A stretch of DNA of 64,000 nt from an uncultured Pelolinea sp. (GTDB taxonomy: Bacteria; Chloroflexota; Anaerolineae; Anaerolineales; Anaerolineaceae): NCBI GenBank assembly GCA_964612815.1, contig CAZTCV010000001.1:392885-456884 (forward strand). The letters are read 5' to 3'. Each line of letters starts with the position of its first letter. Position 1 is the stretch's first letter. Made by a program: the position numbers and the translations under genes. This document shows, one piece after another, positions 8,313-56,458 of this stretch. The notes beneath the pieces are model-generated. The model did not search any database, was not told the origin of the DNA, and saw nothing but the letters and a program-made list of their open reading frames with translations.

Positions 8313-11171
8313 ATGGCTGCTGATTATTCAATCCAGGTATTAGGCGGGCTTTCAATCATTGACAGCAGCGGTGAGCTGATCGAACTTTCATCACGCAAGG
8401 CGGAAGCGATCATTGTCTATTTGCTATACTCAGACAAGCCATCGGTAGAACGCGAAGAGCTGGCGACCCTATTCTGGGCGGATATGCCGGAATCCAACGC
8501 GCTGACGAACCTGCGGGTAACACTGGCAGGCATCAAAAAGCAATGCGGGGATGTATTGATGGTGACGCGGCGGCGGATATCAATCCACCCGGATATTGTG
8601 ATCACAAGTGACCGGAAAGCACTGGAAGAGCGGATGGATGCCGCGCTGGCAGACGGGCAGGATAAGAAAGAAATGCCACTGGACCAAGCGCAGGCATTAT
8701 CCAGAAAGATGGAATTGTATCGCGGAGATTTTCTGCAAGGATTTTTCATCCGTAATGCCATCGCTTTTGAGGATTGGGCTGCTTATGAAAGGGAATCACT
8801 GCGAAGGCGGATCATTGACGTTAGCCAGATGCTGATCCATACCTATAAGAAGAACCGCATGCTGCGCGAGGGAATTGAAGCGGCAAACCAGCTGCTGTAT
8901 ATCGACTCTTTCAATGACGCTGCATACCAGTGGCTGATCGAGCTATACGCCCTGAATGGAGAACGGGACAAGGCGCTGGAGAAATATACGGATTATTGTC
9001 AATTCCTGGACGAGGAAATTGGCGTTGAACCCACGGAGGAGGTGGCGGCGCTGGCAGAAGCGATACGCGACGGGAGCCTGGCGCCAGAAACGCCAACGGT
9101 CATCAGCGTGGAAAAAAGCGCGCTGCCGGTGCCGAATAATATCCCAATGGAATTATCTCCTTTCTTTGGGCGGCGGGCAGAGCTGGCGCAGCTGCGGGAT
9201 TATTTACATAACCCGCACCTGCGGCTGGTGACGATGATTGGGCAAGGCGGCACGGGAAAAACGCGGCTGGCGATTGAAGCAGCACGGCAAAACCTGCGGC
9301 TATTTCCGGATGGCGTGTGGTTTGTGAAACTTGAAGGGGTGGTCTCGGCGGACCTGGTGCTGCCGGAGATCTATAAGGTGCTTGGGATCACCTATCCGCA
9401 GCGCGAGAAAGCGCAGGATGGGCTGGTTGAATATATGAACGGGCACCATATTCTGATGGTGCTGGATAATTTTGAGCAACTGCTGGATGCGAGCGCGATC
9501 ATCGCAGATGTGATCCAGCGCACAGAGAACTCCAAAGTGATCGTTACCTCGCGCGAGATGACGGGACTGCCAGAAGAGACGAACATGTACCTGGATGGTC
9601 TGGATGGGGGGCGTGAAACGATCCAAAAAGAAAAGCGCAGCGCGGAAAACCTTTCTGACGCAGGAAGGATGTTTGTGGAACGGGCAAAGCGGATCTTGCC
9701 GGAGTTCCAACCCAAGGAGAAAGATGTGACGCTGATCGAAGCGATCTGCGACCTGGTGGCTCGGCTGCCGCTAGGGATCGAGCTGGCAGCGGGGGGAATC
9801 AAGAATAAATCCCTGCAGGCCCTGCATGACCACATCGCGCAGGACATTATGACACTTGAGAGTGACCAACCCGAACTGCCAGAACGGCAGCGCAGCCTGA
9901 TGTCGGTGTTTAACACCTTCTGGGCGCAGCTGGCAGAGGACGAGCAGATGATGATCTGCCGCCTATCGGCATTTTGCGGGGTGGTGACACAGGACGCAGC
10001 CAGACAGGTGGCGGGCGTATCAGTGTTCTTCCTGAGCAGCCTGGTATCGCGCGGGTTCCTGAAGCGGGTGGGATCGTATGGCTACCGGGCACACTCAATG
10101 CACCGCCAGTATGTCCGCAAGCAATTGAAAGAGAATCCGAAAGAGTATCAAGAGGTCTCAAGCAAACACCGCGATTATTATTTTGATATGTTGCAGCGGA
10201 TCGTGCGTTCACTGCGCGACAGTCCGCAGAAGGGGATGCTGGATGAGCTGGAAGAAGAATTGTGCAATCTGCGATTGGCATTACATTTCACGATCGAGAG
10301 CGGTGAGAAACAGAAAGCGCTGACATTGTGTGAATTGCTGATGCCATTTTGGAAGATACGCGGATATTACCAGGAAGGGTATCACTGGCTGGACCTGGTG
10401 TTCGCGATGGAGGGAGAGGCAAACCCGGTGATGGAATCTTCTGCATTATGCGCTGCAGCAAAGCTGGTGAGCGTATTGGGCGACCACGCGACGGCCGAAG
10501 CATACAGCCGGAAGAGCTTGCAGATCGCCACTGAGACTGGCGACCAGCACGGCATCGCGCGGGCGCTGAATTCGCTGGGAGCCGCGCTGGCAGAAAAGGG
10601 AGAACCAAAGCAAGCAGAAGAGATCTATGGTGAAAGCCTGGAAATTTACCGCAACCTGCGGGTGCAGCAGGCGATCGCCGGGACGCTGGTGAACCTGGCA
10701 CATATGGAAATTAAAAGCGGGAAAACCAATAATGCGAGCGCGATGCTGGATGAAGCAATGCAATCATTTAAGTTGGTTGGTGATTCTGTGGGGGTGACGC
10801 ATGTGCTGCTGGTGGCAGCGCGAATCGCATTAATGCAGGATGACCACGAAAAAGCAATGGTGACGCTGCGGGAAGCGCTGGAGAAGGCATGGAATCTATC
10901 GGCGCGTGAAGAATTGATGCGCGCGTATGTTCTGCTGGCACAGGCGTATGCCCAGAAGGGGTCATGGCCTGAGAGCACACAGCTGCTGGCGGTGGTACGG
11001 CTGGCGGTCAGGCGGCATAAATTGCCGCTGCCGGCGAGTGAGGAGCGGATCGAAAAAGCGACTGAAGAACAGGTGAAAAAAGCGATGGGAGAGAAGGCGT
11101 TCCTGGCTGCCTGGCGGAGCGGTGAACTGGCGGGGGAAGCGGGGATTGTCAATCAAATTTTACAAAAATGA
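8313..11171 (+). CDS. SARP/BTAD-family transcriptional regulator with NB-ARC-type ATPase and TPR repeats (AfsR-like)
   Basis: Winged-helix plus BTAD N-terminus (LYRGDFLQGF), Walker A GQGGTGKTRLA, and C-terminal TPR-like repeats (ALNSLGAALAEKGEPKQAEEIY…). 952 aa. Confidence 0.85.
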   Translation: MAADYSIQVLGGLSIIDSSGELIELSSRKAEAIIVYLLYSDKPSVEREELATLFWADMPESNALTNLRVTLAGIKKQCGDVLMVTRRRISIHPDIVITSDRKALEERMDAALADGQDKKEMPLDQAQALSRKMELYRGDFLQGFFIRNAIAFEDWAAYERESLRRRIIDVSQMLIHTYKKNRMLREGIEAANQLLYIDSFNDAAYQWLIELYALNGERDKALEKYTDYCQFLDEEIGVEPTEEVAALAEAIRDGSLAPETPTVISVEKSALPVPNNIPMELSPFFGRRAELAQLRDYLHNPHLRLVTMIGQGGTGKTRLAIEAARQNLRLFPDGVWFVKLEGVVSADLVLPEIYKVLGITYPQREKAQDGLVEYMNGHHILMVLDNFEQLLDASAIIADVIQRTENSKVIVTSREMTGLPEETNMYLDGLDGGRETIQKEKRSAENLSDAGRMFVERAKRILPEFQPKEKDVTLIEAICDLVARLPLGIELAAGGIKNKSLQALHDHIAQDIMTLESDQPELPERQRSLMSVFNTFWAQLAEDEQMMICRLSAFCGVVTQDAARQVAGVSVFFLSSLVSRGFLKRVGSYGYRAHSMHRQYVRKQLKENPKEYQEVSSKHRDYYFDMLQRIVRSLRDSPQKGMLDELEEELCNLRLALHFTIESGEKQKALTLCELLMPFWKIRGYYQEGYHWLDLVFAMEGEANPVMESSALCAAAKLVSVLGDHATAEAYSRKSLQIATETGDQHGIARALNSLGAALAEKGEPKQAEEIYGESLEIYRNLRVQQAIAGTLVNLAHMEIKSGKTNNASAMLDEAMQSFKLVGDSVGVTHVLLVAARIALMQDDHEKAMVTLREALEKAWNLSAREELMRAYVLLAQAYAQKGSWPESTQLLAVVRLAVRRHKLPLPASEERIEKATEEQVKKAMGEKAFLAAWRSGELAGEAGIVNQILQK

Positions 11172-11305
11172 ATTTATTTTTAAGAACCTCACAGCGCGGT
11201 TGTGATATCCAGCGGTGTTTATTCATTTACGTTATATATAAAGCTCTAATAAAAATCAGAGTGATGAAAAGGTACCATCATTAGCAACAATATCAATAAA
11301 ATAAG

Positions 11306-11758
11306 ATGAATGCTAAACAAAAGACAAGAACATGGATCGTGATCGCTTCTGCGGTTACGATCGTCATAGCTGGCGTGGTATATCTGGCATTGACGACAGA
11401 CCCGAACGCGATATCGCCTGTGAATGACGGATATGACCAATACCGCGATTCACTGGCAAACGCGAAGGGAGCGTTTGACCTGGGAGAAGCGTTATTCCTG
11501 GATGTTCGCACGAGCGAGGAATATGCAGACGCGCATATCAGCGGTGCGGTATCGATTCCGCTGGGGGAGCTCGCTGAAAACGCGCCGAACGTGGATAAGG
11601 GCGCGCTGATCTACACATACTGCACCTGACCAAGCGAAGCCACAAGCGCCCGTGCGGCGGAAATATTGAGTTCGATGGGATATACGAATGTGTACGCGAT
11701 CGTGGGCGGTTTTCGCGCCTGGATTGATGCGGGATATCCGGTGGTAAGCGGGAATTAG
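11306..11758 (+). CDS. membrane-anchored rhodanese-domain protein interrupted by an in-frame TGA (11627-11629) at the catalytic-Cys position; candidate selenoprotein or disrupted gene
   Basis: The 107 aa ORF ends …LIYTYCT-TGA. The same frame continues PSEATSARAAEILSSMGYTNVYAIVGGFRAWIDAGYPVVSGN-TAG, which is the missing C-terminal half of a rhodanese domain. A strong terminator follows 11758, not 11629. Confidence 0.7.
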
Positions 11759-11781
11759 GCGAAAACCAAGAATAGATGGTC

Positions 11782-11816
11782 AATAGAACGGCCTAATGAC
11801 CGTTCTATTTTATTTT
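11782..11816 (+). terminator. intrinsic terminator after the full-length rhodanese reading frame
   Basis: AATAGAACGG-cctaatga-CCGTTCTATT followed by TTATTTT. Confidence 0.75.
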
Positions 11817-11893
11817 AAGGACAGATAAAGGGGAGTTTTTCAGGAGTTGTTTTTAATACTCAGCCGCTGTATGATTAAAATAAAGAGAACGAT

Positions 11894-12367
11894 ATGCGTA
11901 AAAATACCCTGATTATTTTAATCGTTTCTATGGTAATAAGTGGATGCGCCGGGTTTTTGCCAGTGATGGCGACTGAAACTGCGCTGATCCCGGAGCCTGA
12001 AATACCCGCAAGAGCGACGATGATTGAAGCAGCGACCGCAATCGCGGCACAAGCGCCGGAAGGTTGGCTGACGTATGACAACGATGCATACGGTTTTTAT
12101 TTTCACTATCCGCCACAATATGAAGTGTTGACTGATGAGACCAACCTGTATGGTTGGGAAAACGGGATCGTACTGCTTTATAACGGCGGGCAGTCGTATG
12201 ACATTGCGGTGCAGGTGTGGGAATCAGCAGAGGAGATGGGCGCGTTCTATGGCGGGGAGGATGAGCGCTTACATGTCTATCCGGTCGGGGTGCAGATCAT
12301 TTCTGTAATGAACATCACCAACGAAGCGGAAAGTGATGCGATCATTGAGAGCTTTACGATCTATTAA
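11894..12367 (+). CDS. hypothetical lipoprotein
   Basis: Signal peptide with lipobox (VSMVISGC). No recognisable catalytic motif. Confidence 0.55.
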   Translation: MRKNTLIILIVSMVISGCAGFLPVMATETALIPEPEIPARATMIEAATAIAAQAPEGWLTYDNDAYGFYFHYPPQYEVLTDETNLYGWENGIVLLYNGGQSYDIAVQVWESAEEMGAFYGGEDERLHVYPVGVQIISVMNITNEAESDAIIESFTIY

Positions 12368-14170: not shown

Positions 14171-14554
14171 TTATCTTTTCTTCCGGTTTCTTGTTTGATG
14201 ATTTGCATCAAGAGCAAGTATATAACAACGCCTAGTAGAATTATCAAGCCCAAATAATAGCCTATATGGAATATTTCCATAATCAACTCGGTAAACTTTG
14301 CTTTCTACCCATCCAAGTTTTTGACAAAGTTCTTTATCACTTTTATTCCCATTAGGATCAATTTGTTGTATTCCACCTTTTGCCTGAATGGCTTTATTCA
14401 ATTCACGAATATTTGGAGATTCAATAATTTCATATAAAAATTTCTTTAATTTACTAACAAAAGCTTTATTACCGTAAAAGGCATTTGGGTCAAATTCTTT
14501 ATCTTTATGTTTTGAAAAGCAAGGAAGATACCCTTTCGTTTCCTTACCACTCAT
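14171..14554 (-). CDS. RelE/ParE-superfamily-like toxin (putative)
   Basis: C-terminal …VYRVDYGNIPYRLLFGLDNSTRRCYILALDANHQT fits the RelE/HigB/Gp49-type pattern (YRxxF…x-ILxxxxH). The ATG at 14552-14554 overlaps the upstream stop by 11 nt; the listed ORF starts at TTG 14590. Confidence 0.5.
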   Translation of the reverse strand: MSGKETKGYLPCFSKHKDKEFDPNAFYGNKAFVSKLKKFLYEIIESPNIRELNKAIQAKGGIQQIDPNGNKSDKELCQKLGWVESKVYRVDYGNIPYRLLFGLDNSTRRCYILALDANHQTRNRKKR

Positions 14555-15020
14555 CGTGTAATTTAACAGATCCAAGATTAGAAGGGTCAATTACTGTATT
14601 TGGGCGGTTGATGTATGCTTCATGCCAAGGCCCATTGGGATCATGTGTCTTTTCAACAAGGTATGAAGCAGAATATTTTGAATATTTTTCCCATATTTCA
14701 TCAAGAAATTTCTGAATTTTATCTGTAATGCCGCTATAGTCAATTTCAACATCAAAAGATGAGATTGTATAAGCACCACAACCTCTTAACCATTGATAAA
14801 CATTATAAACAACCGGGCCTAATTCCCACGCTTCAATTGAATCAATGAATAAAGGCTCATTGTTTTTCTTATAGAATTCAGCTTGGGCAAAATACAACAT
14901 CTTCTGAATTTTTAAATTTGTTAGGTCATTTTCAGATTCAGAATCCGATTTCTTGATAAAGTAAGAAGCTATTTGTTTTGCTTGATAAGATTTCATAAGA
15001 CCTCCAAGATGATTACACAT
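14544..15020 (-). CDS. Panacea (DUF4065, SocA/GepA-like) domain protein, putative antitoxin
   Basis: KIQKMLYFAQAEFYKKNNEPLFIDSIEAWELGPVVYNVY matches the DUF4065 core (KLQKLLYxAQ…AWxxGPV). Confidence 0.7.
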   Translation of the reverse strand: MCNHLGGLMKSYQAKQIASYFIKKSDSESENDLTNLKIQKMLYFAQAEFYKKNNEPLFIDSIEAWELGPVVYNVYQWLRGCGAYTISSFDVEIDYSGITDKIQKFLDEIWEKYSKYSASYLVEKTHDPNGPWHEAYINRPNTVIDPSNLGSVKLHDEW

Positions 15021-15073
15021 CTCAAGCGTTTATTATAACAACTGTCAATGCAATTATCAAGTTATTTATAGTA

Positions 15074-15973
15074 TTAATGTTCTATCAGAATGTTTTCATC
15101 ATCATAGAATTCAAAAGATCGTTGTTTGCTTTCCATCCGATTAAAATTGTCTTTGAACCTTCTTCTACTAGGGCTAATTTGTAGTAATGCTGTTATTTTG
15201 CCTATTCGATTTCTCAGTATCTGAATCCCCTTTTCCTCATTTAGAAATTGATGTAGCCTCATCTTTCTTGCCCCTTTTTCATCCGCAGGATTTAATTCGT
15301 TTAATTTTTCTAATACAAATCCATCTTCAATTGGTTTATAAATATACTGGTTTATAAACCTCCCGTAATATTTTGGCCGTTTTTGTGGTGTAGTTGTTGG
15401 GTTGTTGTAAATTCGATCTAATTCCTCAAAAAACTCGTCTGGGAATTCTTTCATCCATTGTCTTGCTTCTTCAATGATATAACTCTGAACCAATAAGCGG
15501 AGCGCATCTTTTTTACGATATTTTTGATAGCCTGTTGCCTCGTCAATAACTGCGATCACACCTGTTTTAGCAAAGGCATTGACGATTATTTGCGCTTTTT
15601 TGGCAAGAGGTAATTGTGATTTTAGAAGAACATCTCCGGCATTATTTGCTTCTATATACATATTACATATATCAATAAGATCTTCTGCCTCGAATCCGTG
15701 TGCTTCTCTGGCATTGTACTGAAATTTGATAATACCTTGGTCCCATATTTCGCCTTTATACTTTTCTGGTACGAAAGGCTGAAGGTTTGGGGCACTTAAA
15801 TATCGTTCTAAACCACCTTTTTTGTTGCCCGTTAATGCACCGACCACTTCTCTTTGAAAAAATACCCGCCTTTCATCACTTAGAACCGCACATTTAATTG
15901 TGATTTCCCCAATTTTTATTTCTCCAACATATTTTGCTTCAAGGCCACTCCGTGATACAGATATATTTTTCAC
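15074..15973 (-). CDS. P63C domain-containing phage-derived protein
   Basis: IGEITIKCAVLSDERRVFFQREV…, GVIAVIDEATGYQKYRKKDAL and FPDEFFEEL are hallmark P63C (phage Mx8 p63 C-terminal) motifs. Confidence 0.7.
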   Translation of the reverse strand: MKNISVSRSGLEAKYVGEIKIGEITIKCAVLSDERRVFFQREVVGALTGNKKGGLERYLSAPNLQPFVPEKYKGEIWDQGIIKFQYNAREAHGFEAEDLIDICNMYIEANNAGDVLLKSQLPLAKKAQIIVNAFAKTGVIAVIDEATGYQKYRKKDALRLLVQSYIIEEARQWMKEFPDEFFEELDRIYNNPTTTPQKRPKYYGRFINQYIYKPIEDGFVLEKLNELNPADEKGARKMRLHQFLNEEKGIQILRNRIGKITALLQISPSRRRFKDNFNRMESKQRSFEFYDDENILIEH

Positions 15974-16203
15974 AATTAACTCCTAATCCAATACTAATTA
16001 CTAATCCAAATACTTTTTTTATCACCCCAATAGATATATTAATAAAAAACCTCAATTTTGTATAAATTACCAATTTGATGTGCGATCACCTCAATTTTCT
16101 CTTATCGTCCCACTCTATTGAATTGTTTCAAGATTGGTTTGCTTATCATCTCCAGCTATGTCTTGAATACCTCAAGTTTTCTTCATTTTGAGGATTGTTG
16201 TTT

Positions 16204-16596
16204 TTATACCAACGTAGTTTCATCAGATTCAACATTGCTAAATTCGTGGATAGCTTGTCTAATCTGTGTTGAAATTCTCAATGCAGTATCTTTTGTTACT
16301 TGGATTTCTTTACCAAGTTGGCGGGCAGAAATTCCCTTTTCAGCCTTTAGAATAATCGAGATGGCTAAAAACCACTTTTGTAGAGGAATTTTCGTGCCAT
16401 GAAAGATTGTGCCAACCGTTACTCTAAAGGAAGTGTTACAGGTATTGCAATGATAGCGATTCTCTTTCTGCATTAAGGTGCAACTTTTAGAATAGCAATA
16501 AGGACAAATAGGTTTGTTTCCCCACTTTACTGCTTCGAGGTGATTTAAGCAATCTTTTTGTGTCGGGTATTTCTCAAAGACTTCATTGATATTCAT
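16204..16596 (-). pseudogene. IS1595-family transposase N-terminal fragment (Zn-ribbon plus HTH only; DDE domain missing)
   Basis: CPYCYS…YHCNTCNTSFRVTVGTIFHGTKIPLQKWFLAISI is the IS1595 Zn-ribbon/HTH. The ORF stops at …VESDETTLV, exactly where the DDE domain (VExDETYIGG) normally begins. Only 230 nt of AT-rich DNA follow. Confidence 0.7.
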
Positions 16597-20728: not shown

Positions 20729-23700
20729 TCAGGGGTTGACAACGCGGGTTTGGACCGCCCTGACAGCGACGCGCCATTGATATTGATCGGTTGATTCCTG
20801 ATATCCTTTGCAGGTGATCAAGGTGAGATTGGCGTAGGGCTGGTCATCAAGGACTGACAGATCGGCAGGGTCAACCCAATGATCGACATCTCGCACCTCA
20901 TAGATATAATCCTGACCCCAGGCATGCAGGATGATGAGATCACCCCAGCGCAAGTTTTCGAGGTTGACAAATGGGCCTGGCTGGCCGTTGGCATCATACA
21001 CATGCGCGGTGATGGCCGTGTTACCCACCCAGGTAGGAAAGGCCGTGCCCTCGAGCCATCCGGCCTGGCCAAACAGCCAGGAAATATCCCATGATCCGCG
21101 ACCATCAGAGGGAATCCCAACGACAGGAAGCTGGACACCCAGAGAAGGGATCTCCAATGACAGATTGGAAAAGTCTGAATACTGATAATTGAATGGCTGC
21201 ACAGGCAGGACGGTGGTTTTACCGGGCGCGAAACCTGTTTCTGGCAGATCGGACGGACGGATATCCCAGGCCATACGCGCCTGTTGGACATTCAACTCGC
21301 CCGGATCATCCACATCCCCATCCCCATTGCGGTCTATGCTGATCGAGGCGATATTGTTTGCGTAGCGTGTACCATCATCAAGCAGAACATTGAAAGTGAT
21401 CAGCATGGCATTCAGCGCAAGATCGGGATCGGTCACGCCAAAATCCGGACCGATCGAGCCTTCCCAAACGATGCGCCCGAGCGGATAATCGATGGTTGGA
21501 CCCTCGTAATAACAGTAAGTGGTTGAAGACGCTGGAGACGATGTGCAGCTAACGCCCCGGGAGGTTGAGCCGATGGGAGCACCAGCAGGCAGGGGGTAGC
21601 CGCTATCAATGCCGTTATCATAGAAGGTTGTGTTATTGGGTATCGGGTCGGACACAACCGCATTGACGCCGACGATATTGGTATCGTTGATCCAAACCAT
21701 GTTCCATTCCAGAATTGGGCGGCCAGCCGCGTCAAAATATTTTTCACCATATGGCGGGTCAAATATTTCAGCGCCAAAATTGGATGGGGTCGGGTCCTGA
21801 TTGTCCGCAGGACTGCCGTTGCCATCGGGATCAGGATCATCACCATTTTGTGAGAGATCGCTCACCGGCCCTTCAATGGGATGGACCGCACTAGCGAGGA
21901 CAGAATTTTCATGCGGGCCGCTGGATGTGGGAATCACACGCACAACGATCGTGAGTGATTTTTCTTCAAACGCGGCCAATGTGTTCCCGGCTGCAAGTAA
22001 ATCCTGGTCCAAATTCCCATCGAAAGAATCATTGACGGAGAGATCCAAACTTTCGATCGATTCAACGGTGAAAGCTGCTGGTGATGGATAGGCCGCATTG
22101 AGATCGTCCTGGGCCTGTAGGTCCTGCAGGGTAACATTGCCATAGTTCTTTAGCCGAATGGTGTAGGTGACATCATAGGTACCAGCACTGACCTTTTCGA
22201 TGCGCATCATTTCTTTCGCGGCGCCGATAACCGGCACCTGGTCAGCAAAAATGGTTTCTTCTGCTGTGTTTGAGGTGGTAGTATCGCCATCGGGATCTCT
22301 TGCAGTCAGGCTGGCACGGTTGGTGATACTTCCATAATCGAGATCTTCCAGGGTGACATTATCAGTTCCGGTACAGGTGAATTGCGCAGATGGCGCGAGC
22401 GATGCCGGATAGGAACAGGATACAGAAGCACGATCATCAGAGAGGACAAAAGGCGCAGTGAGGGTGGATGTGCCGGTATTGGTGATGGTATAGGTGTAAT
22501 TGACAACCTGATCAAACGTGTCATAAATCTCGGACGCAGCAGATTTCTCGATGGTGAGCAGATTGAGGAGGTCTGTGTCGGTTGCGATGTTATTATCGTA
22601 ATCCGGATCGATCAGTCCGGCTGGCGGAACAACGGTCGCTGAATTGATGATGCTGGTCTGCGCGTCCATTGCGATGGCGGCCGTGATGGTGTATGTCACA
22701 TTGACACCAGCGGGAATTGATACAGTGTCGGCAATGTTACCTGTGCCGGAGGCAGTACAGGAAGCGCCAGCGCCCGGGGTGCAGGCCCAGGAGGCGTCTG
22801 TGAGGGATGAAGGCAGGTTGTCATACACTGACGCGTTGATGACGTTTGCCGGGCCATTGTTTGATACAACAACAGTGTAAGTAACCGTTTCACCACGATC
22901 TACTGCTGATACGCCATCATCTTTTGTGACTGAAAGGTCTGCTGCCATATTGACGGTGAGGGTGGCTGTATTGGATGCGACCCCCGTACCGCCATTGGTT
23001 GAAGAAACCGGATCTGTGGTGTTATTAAACACACCGGCATCGGCGGTAACTGGTACAGTGATGACGCAAGCGCCACCGACAGGGATCGTGCCACCGCTGA
23101 ATGAGAGCGTTGTGTCTGCCGGTGACGGGGCAAAAGCCGGAGATCCGCAACCGGAGATTGAAACAGAACCCGCATCCGATACGCGCATACCGGCAGGGAA
23201 AGAATCTGAAAATGCCACACCGACCAGCTCGGTTGTGTTCGCGAGCGGATTTCGAATAGTGATGGTGAGGGTTGTGCTCTCACCCTGGGTCAATGTGGCG
23301 GGAGAAAATGATTTGGTGATGGTGGGGGCGGAAACGACATTAAGTGTATCCTGCGCTGTGTTACCCGTACCGGCATTGCTTGAGGTGACCGCATTGCTGG
23401 TGTTGAGATGGCTTCCGGGCGTTGAGGACGTTACAACCAGGGAAACTGTACAACTGCCTTCAGGAATGATGGACCCATTGGCCAAGGTGAGGCGGTTATT
23501 ACCACTATCATAAGTTACCTGCCCGCCGCACTGGTTTGGCTGAGGCGCATAGGCCGGGGTGACAGCAGCCGGAAGGTTATCTACAAACCCGACACCGGTC
23601 AGTGAAACCACATTGGGATTGGTGATCGTGAATGTGAGGGTTGAGAGCCCGCCGGTTTGGATGGTGTCCGCTGAAAACTCCTTTGCGATGACAGGCGCAA

Positions 23701-26700
23701 TCACTTTATAAACCGTGACGCTATCCTGATTCGAAGTAACAAGATCTCCACCTGAAGCCGCATCCGAGGCCGTGGCGGTGGCGAGGTTGGTGACCAAACC
23801 AGCTGTTACATCGCCCGCAGTGACGGTGTAATTCTGGCTGCATTCAACCACGCCGCCGGGCTGGATGGAGGTAGCAGATCCACAATTCAAAGGATTAAGG
23901 AAATGATCATCGGTGACGGAGAATGGCGCAAATAATGGAACGCTGCCGGCATTGGTCAGTGTATAGGTGTAGCGGATGGTGTTTCCCGCATTGAGGAAGG
24001 ACAGGGTGGTTGTGGATTTTCTTAAGTTCAAAGCCGCCAGTTTTACTGTCACGCTGCTTTCATTTGAAGTGACCAGGTTACTGGATTCATCCCGGGCAGA
24101 AGCGGTGGCAAGGTTGGTGACTGATTTTGCTGTGAAGTCTGCAGCGGTTACTGTGTAATCGGCAGAGCACGCGATGGAGGCCCCTGGATTGAGGTCTGCA
24201 GCAGCGCTACAGGTAATATCTGCGGGGAAGCGGTTATCTGAGACAAGGAAAGGTGCATACAGGACGGCGTCACCGGTGTTGGTGAGCTGGTAATTGTATG
24301 TGATCAGATCGCCAACTTGCTTGTAGTTAGGCGTATTTGTTGATTTAAGCAGCGATAATCCGACGCCATTTACTTCCAGTGTACTTGTTGCTGATCCACC
24401 GCTGCCGCCATTGGAGGAGGTGACCGCATTGGAGGTATTCAAGTAGGACCCAGCATTTGGCGCTGTGACTTCTATTTCCACTGTACAAGACGCACCGACC
24501 GCGATCGTTCCGCCAGAAAGTGACACAGAATTGAGTGTGCTTGATACTGTACCACCGCATTGGGAGGGGAGTGGTTCGGAAGCCCGCAGAACCCCGGTGG
24601 GAAAAATATCACTGAACGCAACGCCAGCCAAAGCAAGCGTGTTCTCAGCCGGGTTAGTCAGTGTAAAAGTCAGGACAGACACACCACCGGCTGTGATGGG
24701 ATTGGGAGTGAATGATTTTTCGATCAGAGGCGGGGCAATTGCCCTTAGAGTCGCTGAAGCTGTATTGCCTGTTCCGCCATTTGTTGAAGACACAGAATCA
24801 CTGGTGTTTTCGAAATCGCCCCCTGCATCTGTTTTAACCGAGATAGTCACCTGGCATGAACTGTTGGCAGCGATCGTGCCGGCTGTGAGGGAGACTGAGT
24901 CCACAGTACTTGAAACGCTGCCACCGCATTGTGAAACGTTTGGAATACTGGCGCGCGTCATGCCTGATGGGAAGGTATCGGTGAAAGCGACACCGGAGAG
25001 GGGCGCATTATTAGGGTTGGTGATCGTAAAGGTTAGCGCAGATGACTGCCCAAGCCGGACCGGGTTAGGTGAAAAAGCTTTGGTGATCTGAGGAGGGTTG
25101 AGGGATTCCTCGACGATGAGCGTATCACAGGTGGGGTCTGCGTTGGTGGCATCCTGCTCGCTATGCAGCTCTCCGGCAGCGATACAGTTCTGATAACTGC
25201 CTGCCGCGGCGGCAACGACATCGACAAGGATGGTGCACTCCTGGCCCGCAGGCAGAACACCATCAGCGAGCGTAAATGTGGCCTCAGTATAAGTTACTGT
25301 GCCTCCGCACTGCACTGATTCTGGCGGGGTTGGGATGGTCAGGCCGGCAGGGAGGGTATCTATAAACCCTAACCCGCTCAGATCGACATTGCCCGTGTTT
25401 TTTATCACAACGGCGACCTGTGAGGTGTTTCCCCCGCCTGATTCGACAGGATTGGTGGTGAAATATTTTGTGAGACTGGCACCGGCTAAATTGGTGAGGG
25501 TGGCGGAAGCGCTTTGCGGATTGTAGGCACCGTTGGCAGATGTAATTCCTGAGGCAGGGATCGTATTCGTCAGGTTTCCGCTGACATCCATTGTGACTTT
25601 AATGGATAATTCGCAATTACTGTTGGCGCTGATGCTGCCACCGCTAAAGGAGAAGGAATTCTGCCCCGCGACTGCGGTGATCGTACCGCCACAGGTGCCG
25701 GTTGATGCCTGGGCGGGCGAAGCAATATGCATGCCTCCCAAGTTTTCCGGATCTGTACTTTGCGGCAGATCGTCGGTAAACGCGATACCATTAATCGCGG
25801 AATTATTCGGATTTGTGAGGCGAATGGTCATGGTGGATGCGGCTCCACCAAATACTGTGAGAGGATTGAATGTTTTCACGACTTGAATGAGTAATTCGTT
25901 TACGGATAAGGTCGCATCGGCACGGGCAGGATTGGTGATAGTAATACCCAAACCCTGTAGAACACCAGAAACCTGACCGATGTTAATACGGTTGAGATGA
26001 TTTCCAACCGTGATCCCTTTGACATCCACATTTACAGTGCAAATACCCGGGACACTACCGATCTGTGAAGGAATTTTTGCATCTGTCATTGAGATGGATG
26101 TGCCGAGCGATGGCGCAGTGATGATGCCATCGACGCAGGTGGTGGAGATGTTGGGAGTATCCGCGATGACGATTCCGGCCGGGAGATTATCGGTCAGAGA
26201 AACATTTTCCAGCTGGCGGTCATTGGTATTCTGCAACACGATTGAAAGGGTGGAAATGCCCTGAATATTGACAGATCCGGGGAAGAAAGATTTGCTGACG
26301 GAGATACCGCTGACGGTTAATGTACGGGAAAAGCTTGAAGATGTGGTCTGGTTCTGGTCGTTGGTGATGTTGGCAGGGGAAATGATGTTGTTATAGGTTC
26401 CTGCCGTGTCGGATGTGACGTATACATACAATATGCATTGCCTGCCAGCAGCAATCGAACCGCCCGAATAGGTTACGATCGTGTCTCCCGCAGAAGGCGC
26501 GAAAGTACCACCGAGACAATTCGCATTCTTTGTGGCTGCAGGAGGAGAAGCGACCCTGACACCGGCCGGCAGCGCGTCGGTGATGCTGAAGTTGGTGAGG
26601 TTTTGATCGGCAGGCGCTGTAATATTGATGGAAAGACGCGACTCCCCTTCCACAGGAATTGTGCTGGGACTGAAATTCTTCGAGGCAGAAACGCCTTTGC

Positions 26701-28042
26701 CCTGACCGTAGACAGCGAGATTGCTTGTTACGGCGGTGACATTGGTCGCGCCCTGAACGGTTTCCAGAGCACCTGCAGGAATGGTGTTGGTAAAACTACC
26801 GGGGATGGACCCGGTTACGGTGGCAGTGATGGTGCATGTTCCCGGACTTGTAGGGCTGCCGGAAGGGACGGTGCCTCCTACGAGGGTAAGGGAGGTGGCT
26901 GTGTATGAAACAGTCCCGCCGCACTGGGCCAATTCGGGCGGAGAAAAAATTGACAACCCAGCCGGGAGGTTATCAGTGAATCCTACGCCGGTATAATCGG
27001 AGGCGGATGGGTTCTGCAATGTGATGGTGAGCGTGGTGGTGCCGCCGGCCTCGATCGAAGTGGGTGAAAAGGCTTTCATCATCCCGATCGATTGAAAATT
27101 GATGGGGGCTGAAGCTGCTGCCTGATTGGTAACCCCCTGATTGGATGTGATCGCGAGGGCGGGGATGGTGTTCACATATACGCCTGTTGTCAGCGATGTA
27201 ATGTTCAGGTTGACCACGCAGGTCGTATTGGCGGGCACATTGGCCTGGTTGATGGTGACCGCATTTTGGCCCGCGGCGAGCGGGGCTCCGCCCGGGCCGG
27301 TGATGGTTGCACTCGGGCCACAATTCGAGAAAGTGACCGTATTATTTGCAACGGTAATCCCGGAAGGCAGATTATCAGTCACCGAGACGCCAGAAAGTGG
27401 GTAATTAAGGTCATTGTTGCGGATGCGAATCGATAACACCGAATTCAGCCCAACCCACTGGGTATTTGGCGAAAAAGTTTTACTGAGGGATGGCGGCTGA
27501 ATCGCGTTGACCTGCAGTGTGTGCGTTGCGGGCGTGGTGTTTGTGATCGAGAGCGTTCCGGAAGGGTCGGTCGATTTGAGATTATTGGCCGGGATGACGT
27601 TATCATGATTGCCGGGTGTGACAGAAGTAACATTGACCGTCACCGTACACACACCAGGATTATCCCCGACCTGTGCCGGCACTAATCCACCGATGAGGGA
27701 GAGGGTCTGGCCGATCATTGATACCGTACCTCCGCATGTGGAGACGGCGTTGGCGGGATTTGCAAATACTACACCTGCCGGAAGATTATCAACCCAGGCG
27801 GCTGGAACGGTTGAGAGGGTTAATGGAAAGACATTTGGGTTGTAGATATTGACACTTAAGACAGAGACGCCGCCAGCAGGAATGATATCTGGCGAGAATT
27901 GTTTATTCATCTGTGCCGGGAGACTTATTCCCTCATCAGCGCGCGCCGGAAGAGTTATGTTCGTAATCAAAGAAAGCGTTGCCAGAACGACAACGCAAAC
28001 CCGGTAAAGATGAAATTTCAATGAATTATCCTCTCTTCCCAC
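20729..28042 (-). CDS. giant (2437 aa) secreted surface protein: ~16 DUF11/TIGR01451-type Ig-like repeats, an LPETG motif and a C-terminal sortase catalytic domain
   Basis: Signal peptide, then repeated ~95 aa units (K-FSPNPI…LTFTITNP…GVAFTDxLPxG…QCGGTVS…C-V). LPETG is encoded at 21233-21247. The sortase motifs follow: LEIPSLGVQLPVVG, GNTAITAHV, NLTLITCKGY, WRVAVRAV. The start may instead be TTG 28021 behind GGAAGAGAGG. Confidence 0.9.
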   Translation of the reverse strand: MGREDNSLKFHLYRVCVVVLATLSLITNITLPARADEGISLPAQMNKQFSPDIIPAGGVSVLSVNIYNPNVFPLTLSTVPAAWVDNLPAGVVFANPANAVSTCGGTVSMIGQTLSLIGGLVPAQVGDNPGVCTVTVNVTSVTPGNHDNVIPANNLKSTDPSGTLSITNTTPATHTLQVNAIQPPSLSKTFSPNTQWVGLNSVLSIRIRNNDLNYPLSGVSVTDNLPSGITVANNTVTFSNCGPSATITGPGGAPLAAGQNAVTINQANVPANTTCVVNLNITSLTTGVYVNTIPALAITSNQGVTNQAAASAPINFQSIGMMKAFSPTSIEAGGTTTLTITLQNPSASDYTGVGFTDNLPAGLSIFSPPELAQCGGTVSYTATSLTLVGGTVPSGSPTSPGTCTITATVTGSIPGSFTNTIPAGALETVQGATNVTAVTSNLAVYGQGKGVSASKNFSPSTIPVEGESRLSINITAPADQNLTNFSITDALPAGVRVASPPAATKNANCLGGTFAPSAGDTIVTYSGGSIAAGRQCILYVYVTSDTAGTYNNIISPANITNDQNQTTSSSFSRTLTVSGISVSKSFFPGSVNIQGISTLSIVLQNTNDRQLENVSLTDNLPAGIVIADTPNISTTCVDGIITAPSLGTSISMTDAKIPSQIGSVPGICTVNVDVKGITVGNHLNRINIGQVSGVLQGLGITITNPARADATLSVNELLIQVVKTFNPLTVFGGAASTMTIRLTNPNNSAINGIAFTDDLPQSTDPENLGGMHIASPAQASTGTCGGTITAVAGQNSFSFSGGSISANSNCELSIKVTMDVSGNLTNTIPASGITSANGAYNPQSASATLTNLAGASLTKYFTTNPVESGGGNTSQVAVVIKNTGNVDLSGLGFIDTLPAGLTIPTPPESVQCGGTVTYTEATFTLADGVLPAGQECTILVDVVAAAAGSYQNCIAAGELHSEQDATNADPTCDTLIVEESLNPPQITKAFSPNPVRLGQSSALTFTITNPNNAPLSGVAFTDTFPSGMTRASIPNVSQCGGSVSSTVDSVSLTAGTIAANSSCQVTISVKTDAGGDFENTSDSVSSTNGGTGNTASATLRAIAPPLIEKSFTPNPITAGGVSVLTFTLTNPAENTLALAGVAFSDIFPTGVLRASEPLPSQCGGTVSSTLNSVSLSGGTIAVGASCTVEIEVTAPNAGSYLNTSNAVTSSNGGSGGSATSTLEVNGVGLSLLKSTNTPNYKQVGDLITYNYQLTNTGDAVLYAPFLVSDNRFPADITCSAAADLNPGASIACSADYTVTAADFTAKSVTNLATASARDESSNLVTSNESSVTVKLAALNLRKSTTTLSFLNAGNTIRYTYTLTNAGSVPLFAPFSVTDDHFLNPLNCGSATSIQPGGVVECSQNYTVTAGDVTAGLVTNLATATASDAASGGDLVTSNQDSVTVYKVIAPVIAKEFSADTIQTGGLSTLTFTITNPNVVSLTGVGFVDNLPAAVTPAYAPQPNQCGGQVTYDSGNNRLTLANGSIIPEGSCTVSLVVTSSTPGSHLNTSNAVTSSNAGTGNTAQDTLNVVSAPTITKSFSPATLTQGESTTLTITIRNPLANTTELVGVAFSDSFPAGMRVSDAGSVSISGCGSPAFAPSPADTTLSFSGGTIPVGGACVITVPVTADAGVFNNTTDPVSSTNGGTGVASNTATLTVNMAADLSVTKDDGVSAVDRGETVTYTVVVSNNGPANVINASVYDNLPSSLTDASWACTPGAGASCTASGTGNIADTVSIPAGVNVTYTITAAIAMDAQTSIINSATVVPPAGLIDPDYDNNIATDTDLLNLLTIEKSAASEIYDTFDQVVNYTYTITNTGTSTLTAPFVLSDDRASVSCSYPASLAPSAQFTCTGTDNVTLEDLDYGSITNRASLTARDPDGDTTTSNTAEETIFADQVPVIGAAKEMMRIEKVSAGTYDVTYTIRLKNYGNVTLQDLQAQDDLNAAYPSPAAFTVESIESLDLSVNDSFDGNLDQDLLAAGNTLAAFEEKSLTIVVRVIPTSSGPHENSVLASAVHPIEGPVSDLSQNGDDPDPDGNGSPADNQDPTPSNFGAEIFDPPYGEKYFDAAGRPILEWNMVWINDTNIVGVNAVVSDPIPNNTTFYDNGIDSGYPLPAGAPIGSTSRGVSCTSSPASSTTYCYYEGPTIDYPLGRIVWEGSIGPDFGVTDPDLALNAMLITFNVLLDDGTRYANNIASISIDRNGDGDVDDPGELNVQQARMAWDIRPSDLPETGFAPGKTTVLPVQPFNYQYSDFSNLSLEIPSLGVQLPVVGIPSDGRGSWDISWLFGQAGWLEGTAFPTWVGNTAITAHVYDANGQPGPFVNLENLRWGDLIILHAWGQDYIYEVRDVDHWVDPADLSVLDDQPYANLTLITCKGYQESTDQYQWRVAVRAVQTRVVNP

Positions 28043-41636: not shown

Positions 41637-42362
41637 TCAGCTGGTTTCGGCAGGCGGGATGAAGCGGTAGCCGCCTTCACGGATGTTTTGGACGAGAGTT
41701 GGATCGGAGGGATCTTCTTCGATCTTCTGGCGCAACTGGTGGATGTACCATTTAATGTAGTTGCGCGCTTCGTGGCTGCTTTCGGGCGAAAAGCCGCCCA
41801 CCTCTCTGGCAAGTTCTTTGGGCGGGACAACGCGGTGGGTGTTTTGCATCAGGTAAACAAGGAGGCCAAACTCGCGACTGGTTAGATCCACTTCCTGATC
41901 ATTCTTTTTAACAATCAGTTTATCCTTATGCACGTAGACCGGGCCGACACGCAACTCAATCTGCTCGGCTTGCTCCTGTTTGAGGGAGAAATACTGTTTG
42001 CGCTTTTCGATCGCTTCCTGGGCAGCATCACGGATCTGATCCGGCCCGACTGGCTTGAGCAGATAAATATCGACACCCTCGCGGATGGCCTGCATGGCGG
42101 ATTCGAGCGAGCCATGCCCGGTAAGAATGATGACGGCCGTATCCGGCCAACGCCAGCGGATGGCTTCGAGGACGCGCAAGCCATCGACCTTGCCGCCCAG
42201 ATTGAGATCCAGAAAAACTAGATCGTAATGTTTATCGCGGATCAGATCGAGCGCCTGTTTGCCATCTGCTGCCAGCTCGATTTCATACCCGACCAATTCG
42301 AGGGCGCGCCCAATGAAAGTGCGGATATTTTGTTCATCATCGACAATGAGTGTTTGATACAT
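41637..42362 (-). CDS. response regulator, OmpR/PhoB family
   Basis: REC domain (DLVFLDLNLGG) plus a winged-helix output domain (LTSREFGLLVYLMQN…GGYRF). Confidence 0.9.
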   Translation of the reverse strand: MYQTLIVDDEQNIRTFIGRALELVGYEIELAADGKQALDLIRDKHYDLVFLDLNLGGKVDGLRVLEAIRWRWPDTAVIILTGHGSLESAMQAIREGVDIYLLKPVGPDQIRDAAQEAIEKRKQYFSLKQEQAEQIELRVGPVYVHKDKLIVKKNDQEVDLTSREFGLLVYLMQNTHRVVPPKELAREVGGFSPESSHEARNYIKWYIHQLRQKIEEDPSDPTLVQNIREGGYRFIPPAETS

Positions 42363-42401
42363 GATTGACCTATATTGATTGTATAGTAATCGATGAAAAA
42401 A

Positions 42402-44012
42402 TCAAGCGATGGGTAACGCGACTGTGAAGACCGCACCACCGTTTTGCCTGTTTTCGGCGCTGATCTGCCCGTGATGGGCATCGATGATGGCCTTGCTGAG
42501 ATGCAGGCCAAGACCAAGCCCTTCCTTTTTGGTGGTGAAGAATGGCTGAAAAAGGTTATTGATCTGTTCCGGCTTGATGCCAGGGCCATCGTCAGCGACA
42601 ATGATGTTGACCATTTTTTTGTCCTGTGATTGCGTTACGGAAAGATCGACCTGGCCATGCTCGCAAATCGCCTCGATGCTGTTGATGACCAGATTGAGGA
42701 TGACCTGGTGAATTTGTTCGGTATCCATGAGGACGAGCGGCAGTTTGTCCGCCGGGTGATAGACCAGGCCGATATGTTTCTCATCTGCTTTTTTGCGGGT
42801 GAGATTGATGACGCGATGAATAACATGATCCAAATCAGCGGGCTTTTTTTCTTTTAACTGGGGCTTTCGGCTGGCAGCCCGTAATTCGGCAACGATATTC
42901 TTGATGCGGTCTAATTCCTGGGCGGCAATATCGAGGTATTCGTTGAGCGGGCTGCCTGGATCGAGCGATTCAGATGCCAACCCGAGATAACCGATGATCG
43001 ATTGGAGCGGATTATTGATCTCATGAGCGAGAGAGGCAGCCACTTTCCCTACCGCAGAGAGTTTTTCTGACTGCAGAAGCGCTTGCTCGTTCAATTTGCG
43101 ATCGGTTATATCTTCAATGATATAGATAATGTTGGGCTGGTCCGCATCAGGCAATTGCAGTAGATAGATATTGATATTGACCCAGCTGTTTTGATTACCG
43201 GATTGGCTGATCGTCTTTTCCATTTCTTTTGTGGTGAATTTTTTCTGCAAAAAATCCGCCATGATTTTTGAAAAAGAAGCGAGATCTTCCTTAAAGAACA
43301 ATTCCGGCATTGAGAACTGGCAGATCTTTTCTTTGCTCAACCCGATGATATTCATAAGAGCATTGTTGCAGGTGATGATGCTGCCGCCGGTATCCGTGAT
43401 CGCGATACCAAGGGACGAATTTTCAAAAATACCTCTGAATTTTGCCTCGCTGGCGCTCAGTTCTCTCGTTTTTTCCCGCACCATATCTTCCAGGTTGGCA
43501 GCATAATCATTGATGATTTGATTGGATTTCTCCAGCTCGACCTGTTTTTTGGTCAATTCGCGCTGGAGGGTGGCCATCTCGGCGTAAAGCACACCGATAT
43601 CATCAAACAATTCCTGATCGGGGTGTGAAACTGGCGCTGATTCTGGAAGGGCCTGTTCTTCTGCTGTGCGGGAAATGCTTGTTGTTTGATCAGGGGCACC
43701 ACAAAATTTCTCCGTGAGCAGTTGGAGGTCCTCTTGATTTTGAGCAGCGACGATACACAGGGCGTCACCCAGGAGAACGCCATTCAGAATGAAATAATGC
43801 GCCTCGTCATTCAGCTCGAAGAAAATTTCCCAATTCTTTGCCTGCCCCTCCTGCCAGCCTGACTGGATGAAACGCGTGAATTTTTCACGGCTGCCTTTCT
43901 CCAGCAGGCCAAATAGATCGATGCCTGGTTGAAGCATTTCGGCCCATTCGCGTGAGGCGTGGGAGATGGAAAGCAGGTGGGCGCTTGCATCTGAATTGAT
44001 AACGAAGTCCAT
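42402..44012 (-). CDS. soluble sensor histidine kinase (unknown N-terminal domain, coiled coil, PAS, HisKA, HATPase)
   Basis: H-box AASLAHEINNPLQ, N/G boxes (NLVINSIEA, DDGPGI, GLGLGL) and no TM segments. Confidence 0.85.
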   Translation of the reverse strand: MDFVINSDASAHLLSISHASREWAEMLQPGIDLFGLLEKGSREKFTRFIQSGWQEGQAKNWEIFFELNDEAHYFILNGVLLGDALCIVAAQNQEDLQLLTEKFCGAPDQTTSISRTAEEQALPESAPVSHPDQELFDDIGVLYAEMATLQRELTKKQVELEKSNQIINDYAANLEDMVREKTRELSASEAKFRGIFENSSLGIAITDTGGSIITCNNALMNIIGLSKEKICQFSMPELFFKEDLASFSKIMADFLQKKFTTKEMEKTISQSGNQNSWVNINIYLLQLPDADQPNIIYIIEDITDRKLNEQALLQSEKLSAVGKVAASLAHEINNPLQSIIGYLGLASESLDPGSPLNEYLDIAAQELDRIKNIVAELRAASRKPQLKEKKPADLDHVIHRVINLTRKKADEKHIGLVYHPADKLPLVLMDTEQIHQVILNLVINSIEAICEHGQVDLSVTQSQDKKMVNIIVADDGPGIKPEQINNLFQPFFTTKKEGLGLGLHLSKAIIDAHHGQISAENRQNGGAVFTVALPIA

Positions 44013-44017
44013 TACGG

Positions 44018-44980
44018 CTATCCACCCAAACCGAATAAACGATTGGCAAGGGAAACAGCTTCATCGGCTGATGTGGCAAACCCGTCGCTGCCCACTTTTT
44101 TCCACAAATTATCAGAGATATTAAAAGGCGGACCGCCCACGATCACTTTGACCCGATTGGCCTGATCGCGTTCCCGTACGCCCTGGATGACCTGCTCGAT
44201 AATCGGGATCTGTTTGGATATGGTGGCTGACAGCGCGAGGAGATGGGGGCTGGTTTCATCTAAGGCCTGCAGGATGGCCTGTGACGGCGCATTGCCGCCG
44301 AGATAATATGTATCCCACCCGTCCATCTCGAAAAAGTCCGCCACCATGCGGATGCCGATGTCGTGCATATTAGAGTCGACACTGGCGGCGATCATGCGCA
44401 AGCCATTCTTTTGATTCGCGAAGATATAGGGGTAAAGCTGAGACATGATCATCTGGGTGGCGGCGGTGAAAAAATGTTCCTGGGCGATGGTGATCTGATT
44501 GGTCTGCCAGAGGCGGCCAATTTCATAGAGACTATTCTGGAACACATGCAGGTAGATATCGCGGACAGGGACGCCGGAAGCGGCGCTATCCAGAATCAAT
44601 GTTGAGGCTTGTTTGCGATCGCCGCCCAACAAGAGGGCGCGATAATTCGCAGAGAGCTCTGAAAGAGGATCATCGGTTGAATCCGGACTTTGATTTTTAC
44701 AATCCAGGCTGCAGATAGCGTCATCAATGAATTGGGTGACCTTTTCACCTGCGGCATGGTCCATTCCATCTGAAAAGGTGGCGCGGATAGTATCGAAAAG
44801 GTCAGCCACATCCTGCTCGGTATAGCCCTGGCTCAGGAAGCGGGTGCGTTTCCAGCAGAGGAAATCCTGCAGGATGGCTATGTCGTTGGCGTTCAAAGCG
44901 ACTTCCACCTGCTCAACGAGGGAGATGCCGAGCGCGGAGGTTAATTGGTTAATTTGTGCGGATCTATCCATAGGGTTCAC
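44018..44980 (-). CDS. cobalamin (B12)-binding protein of the CarH/AerR photoreceptor type, without a DNA-binding domain
   Basis: B12-binding_2 helical bundle with W158-x9-E168-H169 (RLWQTNQITIAQEHF). Rossmann B12-binding domain with lower-ligand motif SNMHDIG (H206). The stop lies 5 nt before the HK start. Confidence 0.8.
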   Translation of the reverse strand: MNPMDRSAQINQLTSALGISLVEQVEVALNANDIAILQDFLCWKRTRFLSQGYTEQDVADLFDTIRATFSDGMDHAAGEKVTQFIDDAICSLDCKNQSPDSTDDPLSELSANYRALLLGGDRKQASTLILDSAASGVPVRDIYLHVFQNSLYEIGRLWQTNQITIAQEHFFTAATQMIMSQLYPYIFANQKNGLRMIAASVDSNMHDIGIRMVADFFEMDGWDTYYLGGNAPSQAILQALDETSPHLLALSATISKQIPIIEQVIQGVRERDQANRVKVIVGGPPFNISDNLWKKVGSDGFATSADEAVSLANRLFGLGG

Positions 44981-51434: not shown

Positions 51435-51457
51435 CAGAACCTTTCTGCTTCCTGCGA

Positions 51458-52639: not shown

Positions 52640-52654
52640 GTTCTACTCCTGTTT

Positions 52655-54285: not shown

Positions 54286-54309
54286 TAATGCTCCTTGTAT
54301 AATTCCATT

Positions 54310-54927: not shown

Positions 54928-54941
54928 TGAAAAAACCGTTC

Positions 54942-55595: not shown

Positions 55596-55623
55596 TTTTT
55601 TACTCCTAAGAAATCATTTCTTC

Positions 55624-56418: not shown

Positions 56419-56458
56419 AGGAGACCCTTTGTATTTAAATTGTAGTTGAGCTTAAAAT

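Follow-up and report, generated by a model that had tools for sequence, protein, structure and literature searches.

Rhodanese-related selenoproteins with the motif CxU, in which U is selenocysteine (Sec), were reportedly first predicted by Zhang and Gladyshev in 2005, to whom a consensus model of the bacterial selenocysteine insertion sequence (bSECIS) is also attributed, and the family has stood as a computational prediction only since that time, with no function assigned to it. Five forms of rhodanese selenoprotein are named in a 2026 review, including 'form 3, NF041203, CxU' (PMC13188914), and the name 'COG0607 form 2 (CxU)' is used in a 2022 review (PMC9312934). In this study we analyzed a stretch of 64,000 nucleotides from an uncultured Pelolinea sp. 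(contig CAZTCV010000001.1, positions 392,885 to 456,884; hereafter the window), for which a preliminary description had proposed a candidate selenocysteine rhodanese with an in-frame TGA at window position 11627. We find it very likely that this codon, UGA at codon 108 of a rhodanese gene, is decoded as selenocysteine, as supported by the conservation of the UGA, purifying selection on the frame downstream of it, cysteine-containing homologues, a covarying RNA hairpin and the match to a selenoprotein family. As judged by sequence comparison, the gene appears to be a divergent new member of the known, computationally predicted CxU rhodanese selenoproteins.

An open reading frame (ORF) of 107 codons on the plus strand (11306-11629) terminates at the TGA at 11627-11629, past which the same frame stays open for another 42 codons, PSEATSARAAEILSSMGYTNVYAIVGGFRAWIDAGYPVVSGN, until a TAG at 11756-11758. 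As the preliminary description had noted from the translation, the remainder of a rhodanese domain is encoded in this continuation: residues 54-141 of the read-through product match the Pfam Rhodanese profile PF00581 with an E-value of 2.5e-17 and a score of 63.6 bits (gathering score, 22.2), and the match spans the TGA codon. The 107-residue product scores 36.7 bits against the same profile and covers positions 6-68 only of its 102 positions. The intrinsic terminator at 11782-11809, with its T-run, is the sole terminator-like site within 11100-11950, and its location after the second stop, not the first, agrees with what had been described. What was called as a "107-residue" gene very probably encodes a membrane-anchored rhodanese of 150 residues that gene calling truncated. 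The basic residues at its N-terminus (K4, K6 and R8) point to an N-in topology, by which the rhodanese domain would lie outside the cytoplasmic membrane; most full-length cysteine homologues bear signal-peptide or lipoprotein-like (lipobox-like) N-termini, which are also seen among the Sec homologues.

The nearest curated family is the one named above. NF041203 (rhodanese_LYCAU, 'rhodanese-related (seleno)protein') was the top NCBIfam match for all the Sec forms and for the Cys form. The statement in the preliminary description that rhodanese-related sulfurtransferases are a recognized prokaryotic selenoprotein family agrees with this match and with the catalogued CxU family. The window protein scores 67.9 bits with X at residue 108 and 74.8 bits with C at this residue, whereas 61-75 bits were obtained for the orthologues and 94.4 bits for the Cys homologue; all these scores lie under the curated cut-off of 115, and therefore the proteins are not members of NF041203 by the rule of NCBI, though it is the best-scoring family in every case. 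With NF041203 they share a single rhodanese domain in a protein of about 125-150 residues, the coexistence of Cys and Sec forms, and Sec two residues past Y-C (Y-C-T-U herein; L-Y-C-A-U in the family name, the register of U in NF041203 being taken from the motif name only). Unlike NF041203, with its C-A-U, the window clade has the loop C-T-U-P-[SA]-E; two further differences are its long signal-anchor helix and its linker, in which NDGYDQYR is conserved.

The preliminary description had allowed for a TGC/TGT-to-TGA mutation or a base-call error, and had pointed to the reads at 11627-11629 and to the codon of the orthologues as checks. Two sludge metagenomes yielded Logan contigs (word depth 12.7 and 27.2) that match the region 11300-11800 exactly, TGA included, and a strain variant from freshwater sediment showed five differences in one contig of 341 nucleotides (nt), none of which fell at the TGA; thus TGA was reproduced in independent metagenome assemblies, with no TGC or TGT. 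A protein search gave ten clusters of 97-109 residues with 58-99% identity, all ending in ...DKGALIYTYCT. On the DNA level, using the contigs of the protein-cluster members plus further metagenome loci, the close clade comprised 12 distinct sequences (54-99% amino acid identity), all 12 with TGA at this codon followed by Pro, and with the C-terminus after the TGA intact over 41-43 codons. Together with two distant orthologues, L017 (48% identity) and L104, the TGA was found in 14 of 14 distinct orthologous sequences covering about 40-99% amino acid identity, and neither TGY nor TAA or TAG was found at the codon in any of the 14. The protein of L104 (P0176) ends in ...VMYCT, followed by the TGA and then by LNEHSSAGAAQIL..., whereas cysteine (TGC) occupies the position in further full-length homologues. 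With the independent assemblies and the uniform orthologues, the suspicion of a mutation or a base-call error was not borne out.

The sequence downstream of the UGA evolves as a coding sequence. Pairwise Nei-Gojobori estimates among the orthologues gave a median ratio of nonsynonymous to synonymous substitution (dN/dS) of 0.112 over the 66 codons that precede the UGA versus 0.108 over the 39 codons that follow it, with dS of about 1.5, and frame 0 after the UGA contains no stop in any orthologue, while stops are present in the other two frames. This pattern of substitutions indicates that the region downstream of the UGA is translated. It bears directly on genuine termination, by which the product would be the 107-residue fragment and the TGA would stem from a base-call error, a recent mutation of TGY or the decay of the gene to a pseudogene. 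Every public gene call of the close clade does stop at the TGA, and the folding of the single RNA sequence is unremarkable (see below), but the TGA recurs across 14 distinct sequences whose samples and assemblies are independent, the downstream frame is constrained (dN/dS 0.108) and stop-free in frame 0 alone, a product of 107 residues would be without the active-site loop and the final third of the fold, and the terminator lies past the second stop. We regard termination at this codon as very improbable, and sequencing error or a pseudogene as effectively refuted by the comparative data. A split gene, in which re-initiation after the UGA yields two polypeptides that assemble into one rhodanese fold, is equally improbable: a TTG at 11666 does open a 30-codon ORF in the same frame, but this start is not conserved, half of the orthologues having TTA instead; the stretch from the UGA to the TTG is conserved at the protein level; and the split would cut the active-site loop. 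The split gene was rejected on these grounds.

We then considered the genetic code. Among the 51 long ORFs of the window, the stop codon is TAA in 21, TAG in 16 and TGA in 14, and the ORFs terminated by TGA show full-length Pfam architectures with lengths as in their relatives. The 952-residue gene located just upstream of the rhodanese gene ends in TGA, and its length agrees with that of its orthologues. Apart from the rhodanese gene, TGA in the window serves as a normal stop codon. The only support for a reassigned code (table 4 or 25), with TGA as a sense codon for Trp or Gly throughout the organism, comes from the L017 orthologue, which was translated with Trp by one public gene caller: its DNA has TGA where the public protein P0124 shows Trp, because the gene caller switched to genetic code 4 on this contig. 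Against this stand the 14 of 51 long ORFs that end in TGA with complete domain architectures, such as the 952-residue regulator, the absence of any other plausible window gene interrupted by TGA, and a guanine plus cytosine content of 52%. The reassigned code is extremely improbable, and is refuted for the window by its TGA stop usage. A second credible TGA-interrupted gene was found neither in the 64-kb window nor in L104, so that no second selenoprotein is at hand as corroboration.

Pairing of Sec and Cys at one position in an active-site loop is a classic sign of a selenoprotein. In the full-length homologues P0122 (44% identity), P0161, P0164-P0168, P0170 and P0173, Cys is aligned to the UGA; the Cys homologues read (I/V)TYC-S-C-PAEQT, while P0163 reads Y-C-A-C. 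In L018, the DNA that encodes P0122, the codon at the UGA position is TGC. In the search of representative proteins, multi-domain rhodaneses with summed scores prevailed, and P0122 and P0124 alone were informative. The motif C-T-U (Y-C106-T107-U108) is present in all Sec forms within an eight-residue loop, and the Cys homologues carry CxC there.

As a candidate for the SECIS, the preliminary description had offered a CGCC/GGCG stem with a GU-containing loop about 21 nt after the UGA, which it considered weak. The stem and its spacing were confirmed; the qualification as weak was not, in view of frozen synonymous codons, compensatory changes and agreement with the bSECIS rules. The consensus fold by RNAalifold of a 10-sequence alignment (75 nt from the Cys106 codon onward) consists of three stacked helices with the apical loop CGUGC, and the minimum free energy (MFE) of the corresponding 55-nt stretch of the window is -12.1 kcal/mol. 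In the 10 sequences 97.3% of the cells were paired, compared with 93.0% in shuffles (0/500) and 30-55% with slid partners, and after addition of L017 and L104 the values for the 12 sequences were 88.9%, 85.3% (0/500) and 30-51%, respectively; the covariation score for the 12 sequences was 0.216 versus 0.146 in shuffles (0/500), the shuffle control for both pair counts and covariation being uncorrected for phylogeny. Compensatory changes were found at pair 27/39 (C-G in eight of the 12 sequences, U-A in four) and at pair 15/48 (C-G in five sequences, U-A in four). The hairpins of L017 (GUGCC-CGGGG-GGCAC) and L104 (GUGCC-GGUGC-GGCAC) retain the 21-nt spacing despite altered encoded residues. For the Cys homologue L018, the consensus structure would cost +19 kcal/mol, and the apical hairpin is absent.

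Codon usage points to the same element. The 10 sequences contain 44 columns in which an invariant residue is encoded by degenerate codons; 40 of these columns use at least two codons, and the remaining four, each with a single codon, are the ACC directly before the UGA and the hairpin codons GCC-CGT-GCG. The Thr codon at 11624-11626 is ACC in all 10 close-clade sequences, whereas the nearby Thr104 codon varies freely, and ACC-TGA-C is also retained in L017 and L104. The base 3' of the UGA is invariant across the close clade. The ACC-UGA context may reflect a requirement for Sec insertion or against the action of the release factor.

According to the bSECIS rules given in section 5 of the 2026 review (PMC13188914), the loop consists of 3-9 nt on an upper stem of at least 4 bp, with a G among the first two nucleotides of the loop and G or U following it, located 16-37 nt from the UGA, and the MFE is -7.5 kcal/mol or lower. 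Upon application of these rules by hand, the element showed a loop of 5 nt, a stem of 4-5 bp, G at loop position 2 with U or G next to it, a spacing of 21 nt and an MFE of -9.2 to -17.4 kcal/mol, which is inside the limit. In common with the bacterial SECIS of the E. coli fdhF/fdnG type, the element forms its stem-loop inside the coding region, directly 3' of the UGA, with a small apical loop containing G and then U/G, and with the UGA-to-loop spacing inside the 16-37 nt range. In contrast to that type, its sequence is unrelated, its apical stem has only 4-5 bp, and the helices beneath are weak and variable. The comparative evidence as a whole reaches the standard that is usual for calling a bacterial selenoprotein.

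Several observations weigh against selenocysteine decoding. Folding of the single sequence 11621-11700 (80 nt) gave an MFE of -15 kcal/mol with a z-score of +1.7 relative to shuffles; this single-sequence fold is no better than its shuffles, and the hairpin signal is seen in the comparative analysis only. The hairpin is small (apical stem of 4-5 bp), and the two distant orthologues, L017 and L104, show weak conservation of the lower and middle helices. The window protein falls below the curated cut-off of NF041203. With respect to the decoding machinery, no tRNA-Sec was found in the 64-kb window, where Rfam at its gathering thresholds gave two tRNAs only, and SelA, SelB and SelD domains were absent from the window ORFs scanned, in line with the earlier statement that the window holds no sel genes; nor did any fetched contig of the relatives carry selA, selB, selD or tRNA-Sec. 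A search for the rhodanese orthologue among 185,579 GTDB species genomes, using the rhodanese alignment, gave none. The adenylosuccinate-lyase-like (PurB-like) gene at 594-1940 on the minus strand has its best matches among GTDB species genomes at 47-55% identity, in metagenome-assembled genomes of Patescibacteria, DPANN archaea and Elusimicrobia; given these values and the absence of a rhodanese orthologue, the window lineage seems to be without a close relative among these genomes. Finally, no RNA-seq runs holding the sequence were found.

What probability lies beyond Sec decoding falls mainly to read-through independent of a SECIS, in which a near-cognate or suppressor tRNA would insert Trp, Cys, Arg or Gly, and ACC-UGA-C together with the hairpin would act as a stimulator instead of a SelB site. 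The clear translation of the downstream frame, the invariant close-clade context of the UGA (the codon 5' and the base 3' of it), and the absence of genes of the Sec machinery from the window ORFs scanned and the fetched contigs are all compatible with such read-through. It would not, however, account for Cys in the homologues at this very position, in the active-site loop and beside another Cys, nor for a hairpin that obeys the bSECIS spacing and the loop G[G/U] in three lineages, nor for a nearest curated family that is a selenoprotein family. To our knowledge, no bacterial read-through system of this kind operates at a catalytic-loop residue. We consider read-through of this type quite unlikely, and retain selenocysteine as the probable residue at position 108.

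The position of U108 within the active site was assigned differently from the preliminary description, in which the TGA had been aligned residue for residue with the catalytic Cys. The interpretation as a selenocysteine rhodanese is supported, but this register is probably off by two residues. HMMER alignments to rhodaneses in PDB paired Y-C106 with the catalytic Y-C, opening a two-residue gap, and MAFFT with diverse rhodaneses likewise placed Y-C106 at the catalytic Y-C. If the alignment is made without gaps and counted from the helix that comes next, U108 falls at the catalytic Cys, as proposed earlier, and therefore the placement of U108 is not fixed by sequence alone. The AlphaFold (AF2) model, which was built with X at residue 108, has a predicted local distance difference test score (pLDDT) of 91.6 and a rhodanese fold; DSSP assigned residues 3-30 to an N-terminal helix, 101-105 to the central strand and 106-110 to a loop, with a further helix beginning at 111. 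On the register the model is not fully independent, because its input alignment already paired the Y-C motifs. The top Foldseek matches in PDB were all rhodanese domains, such as 3tp9 with a root-mean-square deviation (rmsd) of 1.1 over 100 columns. From the alignments and the model, Cys106 is probably the equivalent of the canonical catalytic Cys, with U108 at +2.

Compared with canonical single-domain rhodaneses (E. coli PspE, GlpE and YgaP; PDB 3tp9, 6mxv, 3ilm and 3nhv), the domain has the same fold (Foldseek probability 1.00; rmsd 1.1-2.4 Å), the same Y-C closing the central strand and then the helix S-A-x-A-A. Like the periplasmic PspE, it is probably located outside the cytoplasm. The canonical loop, C-x-x-G-x-R-(S/T), has six residues and a single Cys, whereas the loop of the window protein, Cys106 to Ser114, has eight residues, lacks the Gly and the Arg, and contains Sec108 as a second chalcogen. 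In the two-Cys rhodaneses with an extended loop (Y-C-x-x-x-x-C-x-x-S; P0012, P0082 and P0130), the loop from Y-C to the helix-capping Ser is likewise of eight residues in the MAFFT alignment, but the second Cys stands at +5 and not at +2 as does the Sec herein. TsoB, a selenoprotein resembling a rhodanese/DsbD fusion (NF045694), also has Sec in the loop of a rhodanese and an extracytoplasmic redox context, but it is a fusion of 572 residues with a UxxxxU motif, and the scores of 31-33 bits against it lie far under its cut-off of 805. The features of the gene are listed in Table 1.

Table 1. Location of the predicted features of the rhodanese gene in the window
Feature	Position	Strand	Description
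Proposed selenoprotein gene, complete	11306..11758	+	150 codons, predicted Sec at codon 108, plus TAG stop 11756-11758
Predicted N-terminal signal-anchor helix	11312..11395	+	Residues 3-30, helix in AF2 model
Rhodanese domain	11465..11728	+	Residues 54-141, PF00581
Cys106 (TGC), invariant 'YC'	11621..11623	+	First residue past strand 101-105; HMMER, MAFFT, DSSP
Proposed Sec codon UGA, residue 108	11627..11629	+	TGA in 14/14 orthologues; C-T-U with Cys106
Proposed bacterial SECIS	11625..11679	+	RNAalifold helices 11625-27/11677-79, 11635-38/11665-68, 11647-50/11656-59
Apical hairpin CGCC-CGUGC-GGCG	11647..11659	+	Loop begins 21 nt past UGA; G-U at loop positions 2-3
Intrinsic terminator	11782-11809 + T-run, to 11819	+	10-bp stem, past second stop

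Taken in sequence, these features would operate as follows. The mRNA segment 11625-11679 would fold into a small stem-loop with the apical hairpin CGCC-CGUGC-GGCG, which as a bacterial SECIS would be bound by the complex of SelB, GTP and Sec-tRNA(Sec), which in competition with release factor 2 would bring Sec to the ribosome. Translation would then run on to the TAG at 11756, and transcription would stop at the terminator at 11782-11819. In the protein, Sec108 would lie two residues past Cys106 in the active-site loop Y-C-T-U-P-S/A-E, where the pair is probably a redox-active selenenylsulfide or a carrier of persulfide or perselenide, and the enzyme would be a thiol- or sulfur-transfer protein on the outer face of the membrane. 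The SelB/tRNA-Sec machinery of the organism, the topology and the chemistry of C-x-U are what we infer from these comparisons.

With respect to the gene neighborhood, the rhodanese gene always follows the 952-residue BTAD/NB-ARC/TPR regulator on the same strand. A ferritin gene lies just downstream, on the opposite strand, in L001 and L002, and ferritin plus a Fur-family gene in L005-L008 (neighbor genes of the relatives at L001 10508-11059, L005 7213-8311 and L008 1231-2331). In the window (11894-12367) and in the near-identical L021-L023, an ORF of 157 residues with a lipoprotein-like N-terminus and no Pfam match is found there instead. The cluster of L104 (95-7713) encodes ferritin, NifU/FeS_assembly_P, TusA, the Sec-rhodanese, DsrE_2, an HMA P-type ATPase, a methyltransferase, a CoA-transferase and a YHS domain protein, and looks like a sulfur-relay and metal-handling neighborhood; judged from gene neighborhood only, its order TusA-rhodanese-DsrE_2 suggests a role in sulfur relay for the wider family.

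Elsewhere in the window, all on the minus strand, four further regions were recognized. The first, a block of about 2.7 kb at 14171-16596 between the second PNP_UDP_1 gene and an EamA gene, contains four ORFs, all ended by TAA (a 139-residue ORF without Pfam match, a SocA_Panacea antitoxin domain, a P63C domain and an IS1595-type zinc ribbon); since the near-identical L021-L023 lack this block, it is probably a strain-specific insertion of mobile, toxin-antitoxin or phage-derived origin. The ORF of 2437 residues at 20729-28042 probably encodes a giant surface protein, given that many DUF7933 and CLIPPER repeats occur in its counterpart in L021/L022; the length varies between strains (2437 versus 2329 residues). 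At 41637-44980, three consecutive genes for a two-domain B12-binding protein (320 residues), a PAS/HisKA histidine kinase (536 residues) and a probable response regulator (241 residues, as judged from its N-terminal sequence only) may form a two-component system linked to cobalamin or light. Finally, the region 50193-59578, with three paralogous family-4 glycoside hydrolases, an EIIC gene of the phosphotransferase system (PTS), a DegT/DnrJ aminotransferase and short ORFs that by appearance resemble PTS EIIB and EIIA, is probably a locus for the utilization of phospho-sugars.

A more far-reaching interpretation, which we judge unlikely, is that the window clade and its Cys relatives constitute a distinct extracytoplasmic 'Y-C-x-[U/C]-P-x-E' rhodanese subfamily apart from NF041203, working as a Cys-x-Sec selenenylsulfide switch or as a relay of sulfur or selenium at the membrane surface, maybe tied to the control of iron or oxidative stress in view of the ferritin and Fur-family neighbors in relatives and of the L104 cluster, with an unusually minimal SECIS (apical hairpin of 4-5 bp) and an invariant ACC-UGA; under a more radical reading, the lineage would lack SelB, and the hairpin would drive read-through independent of a SECIS.

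With the annotation corrected, the active-site loop and the final third of the fold return to a protein that gene callers routinely truncate, as they do CxU rhodaneses in general: the public entries of the close clade are all cut at the TGA, at 107-109 residues, and the distant Sec form P0176 at residue 133. In the case of P0124 (L017, 134-526), use of genetic code 4 for the 661-nt contig gave a 'full-length' protein in which W takes the place of Sec; evidently, a metagenome gene caller can be led by a selenoprotein gene to choose the wrong code. No new principle is involved, since the replacement of Cys by Sec in rhodanese loops and SECIS hairpins within coding regions are already established. 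The compact, conserved candidate SECIS (about 55 nt, with an apical hairpin of 13 nt) and its natural compensatory variants would offer a test case for the recognition by SelB outside Enterobacteria, and the CxU rhodanese selenoproteins would gain a divergent, membrane-anchored branch.

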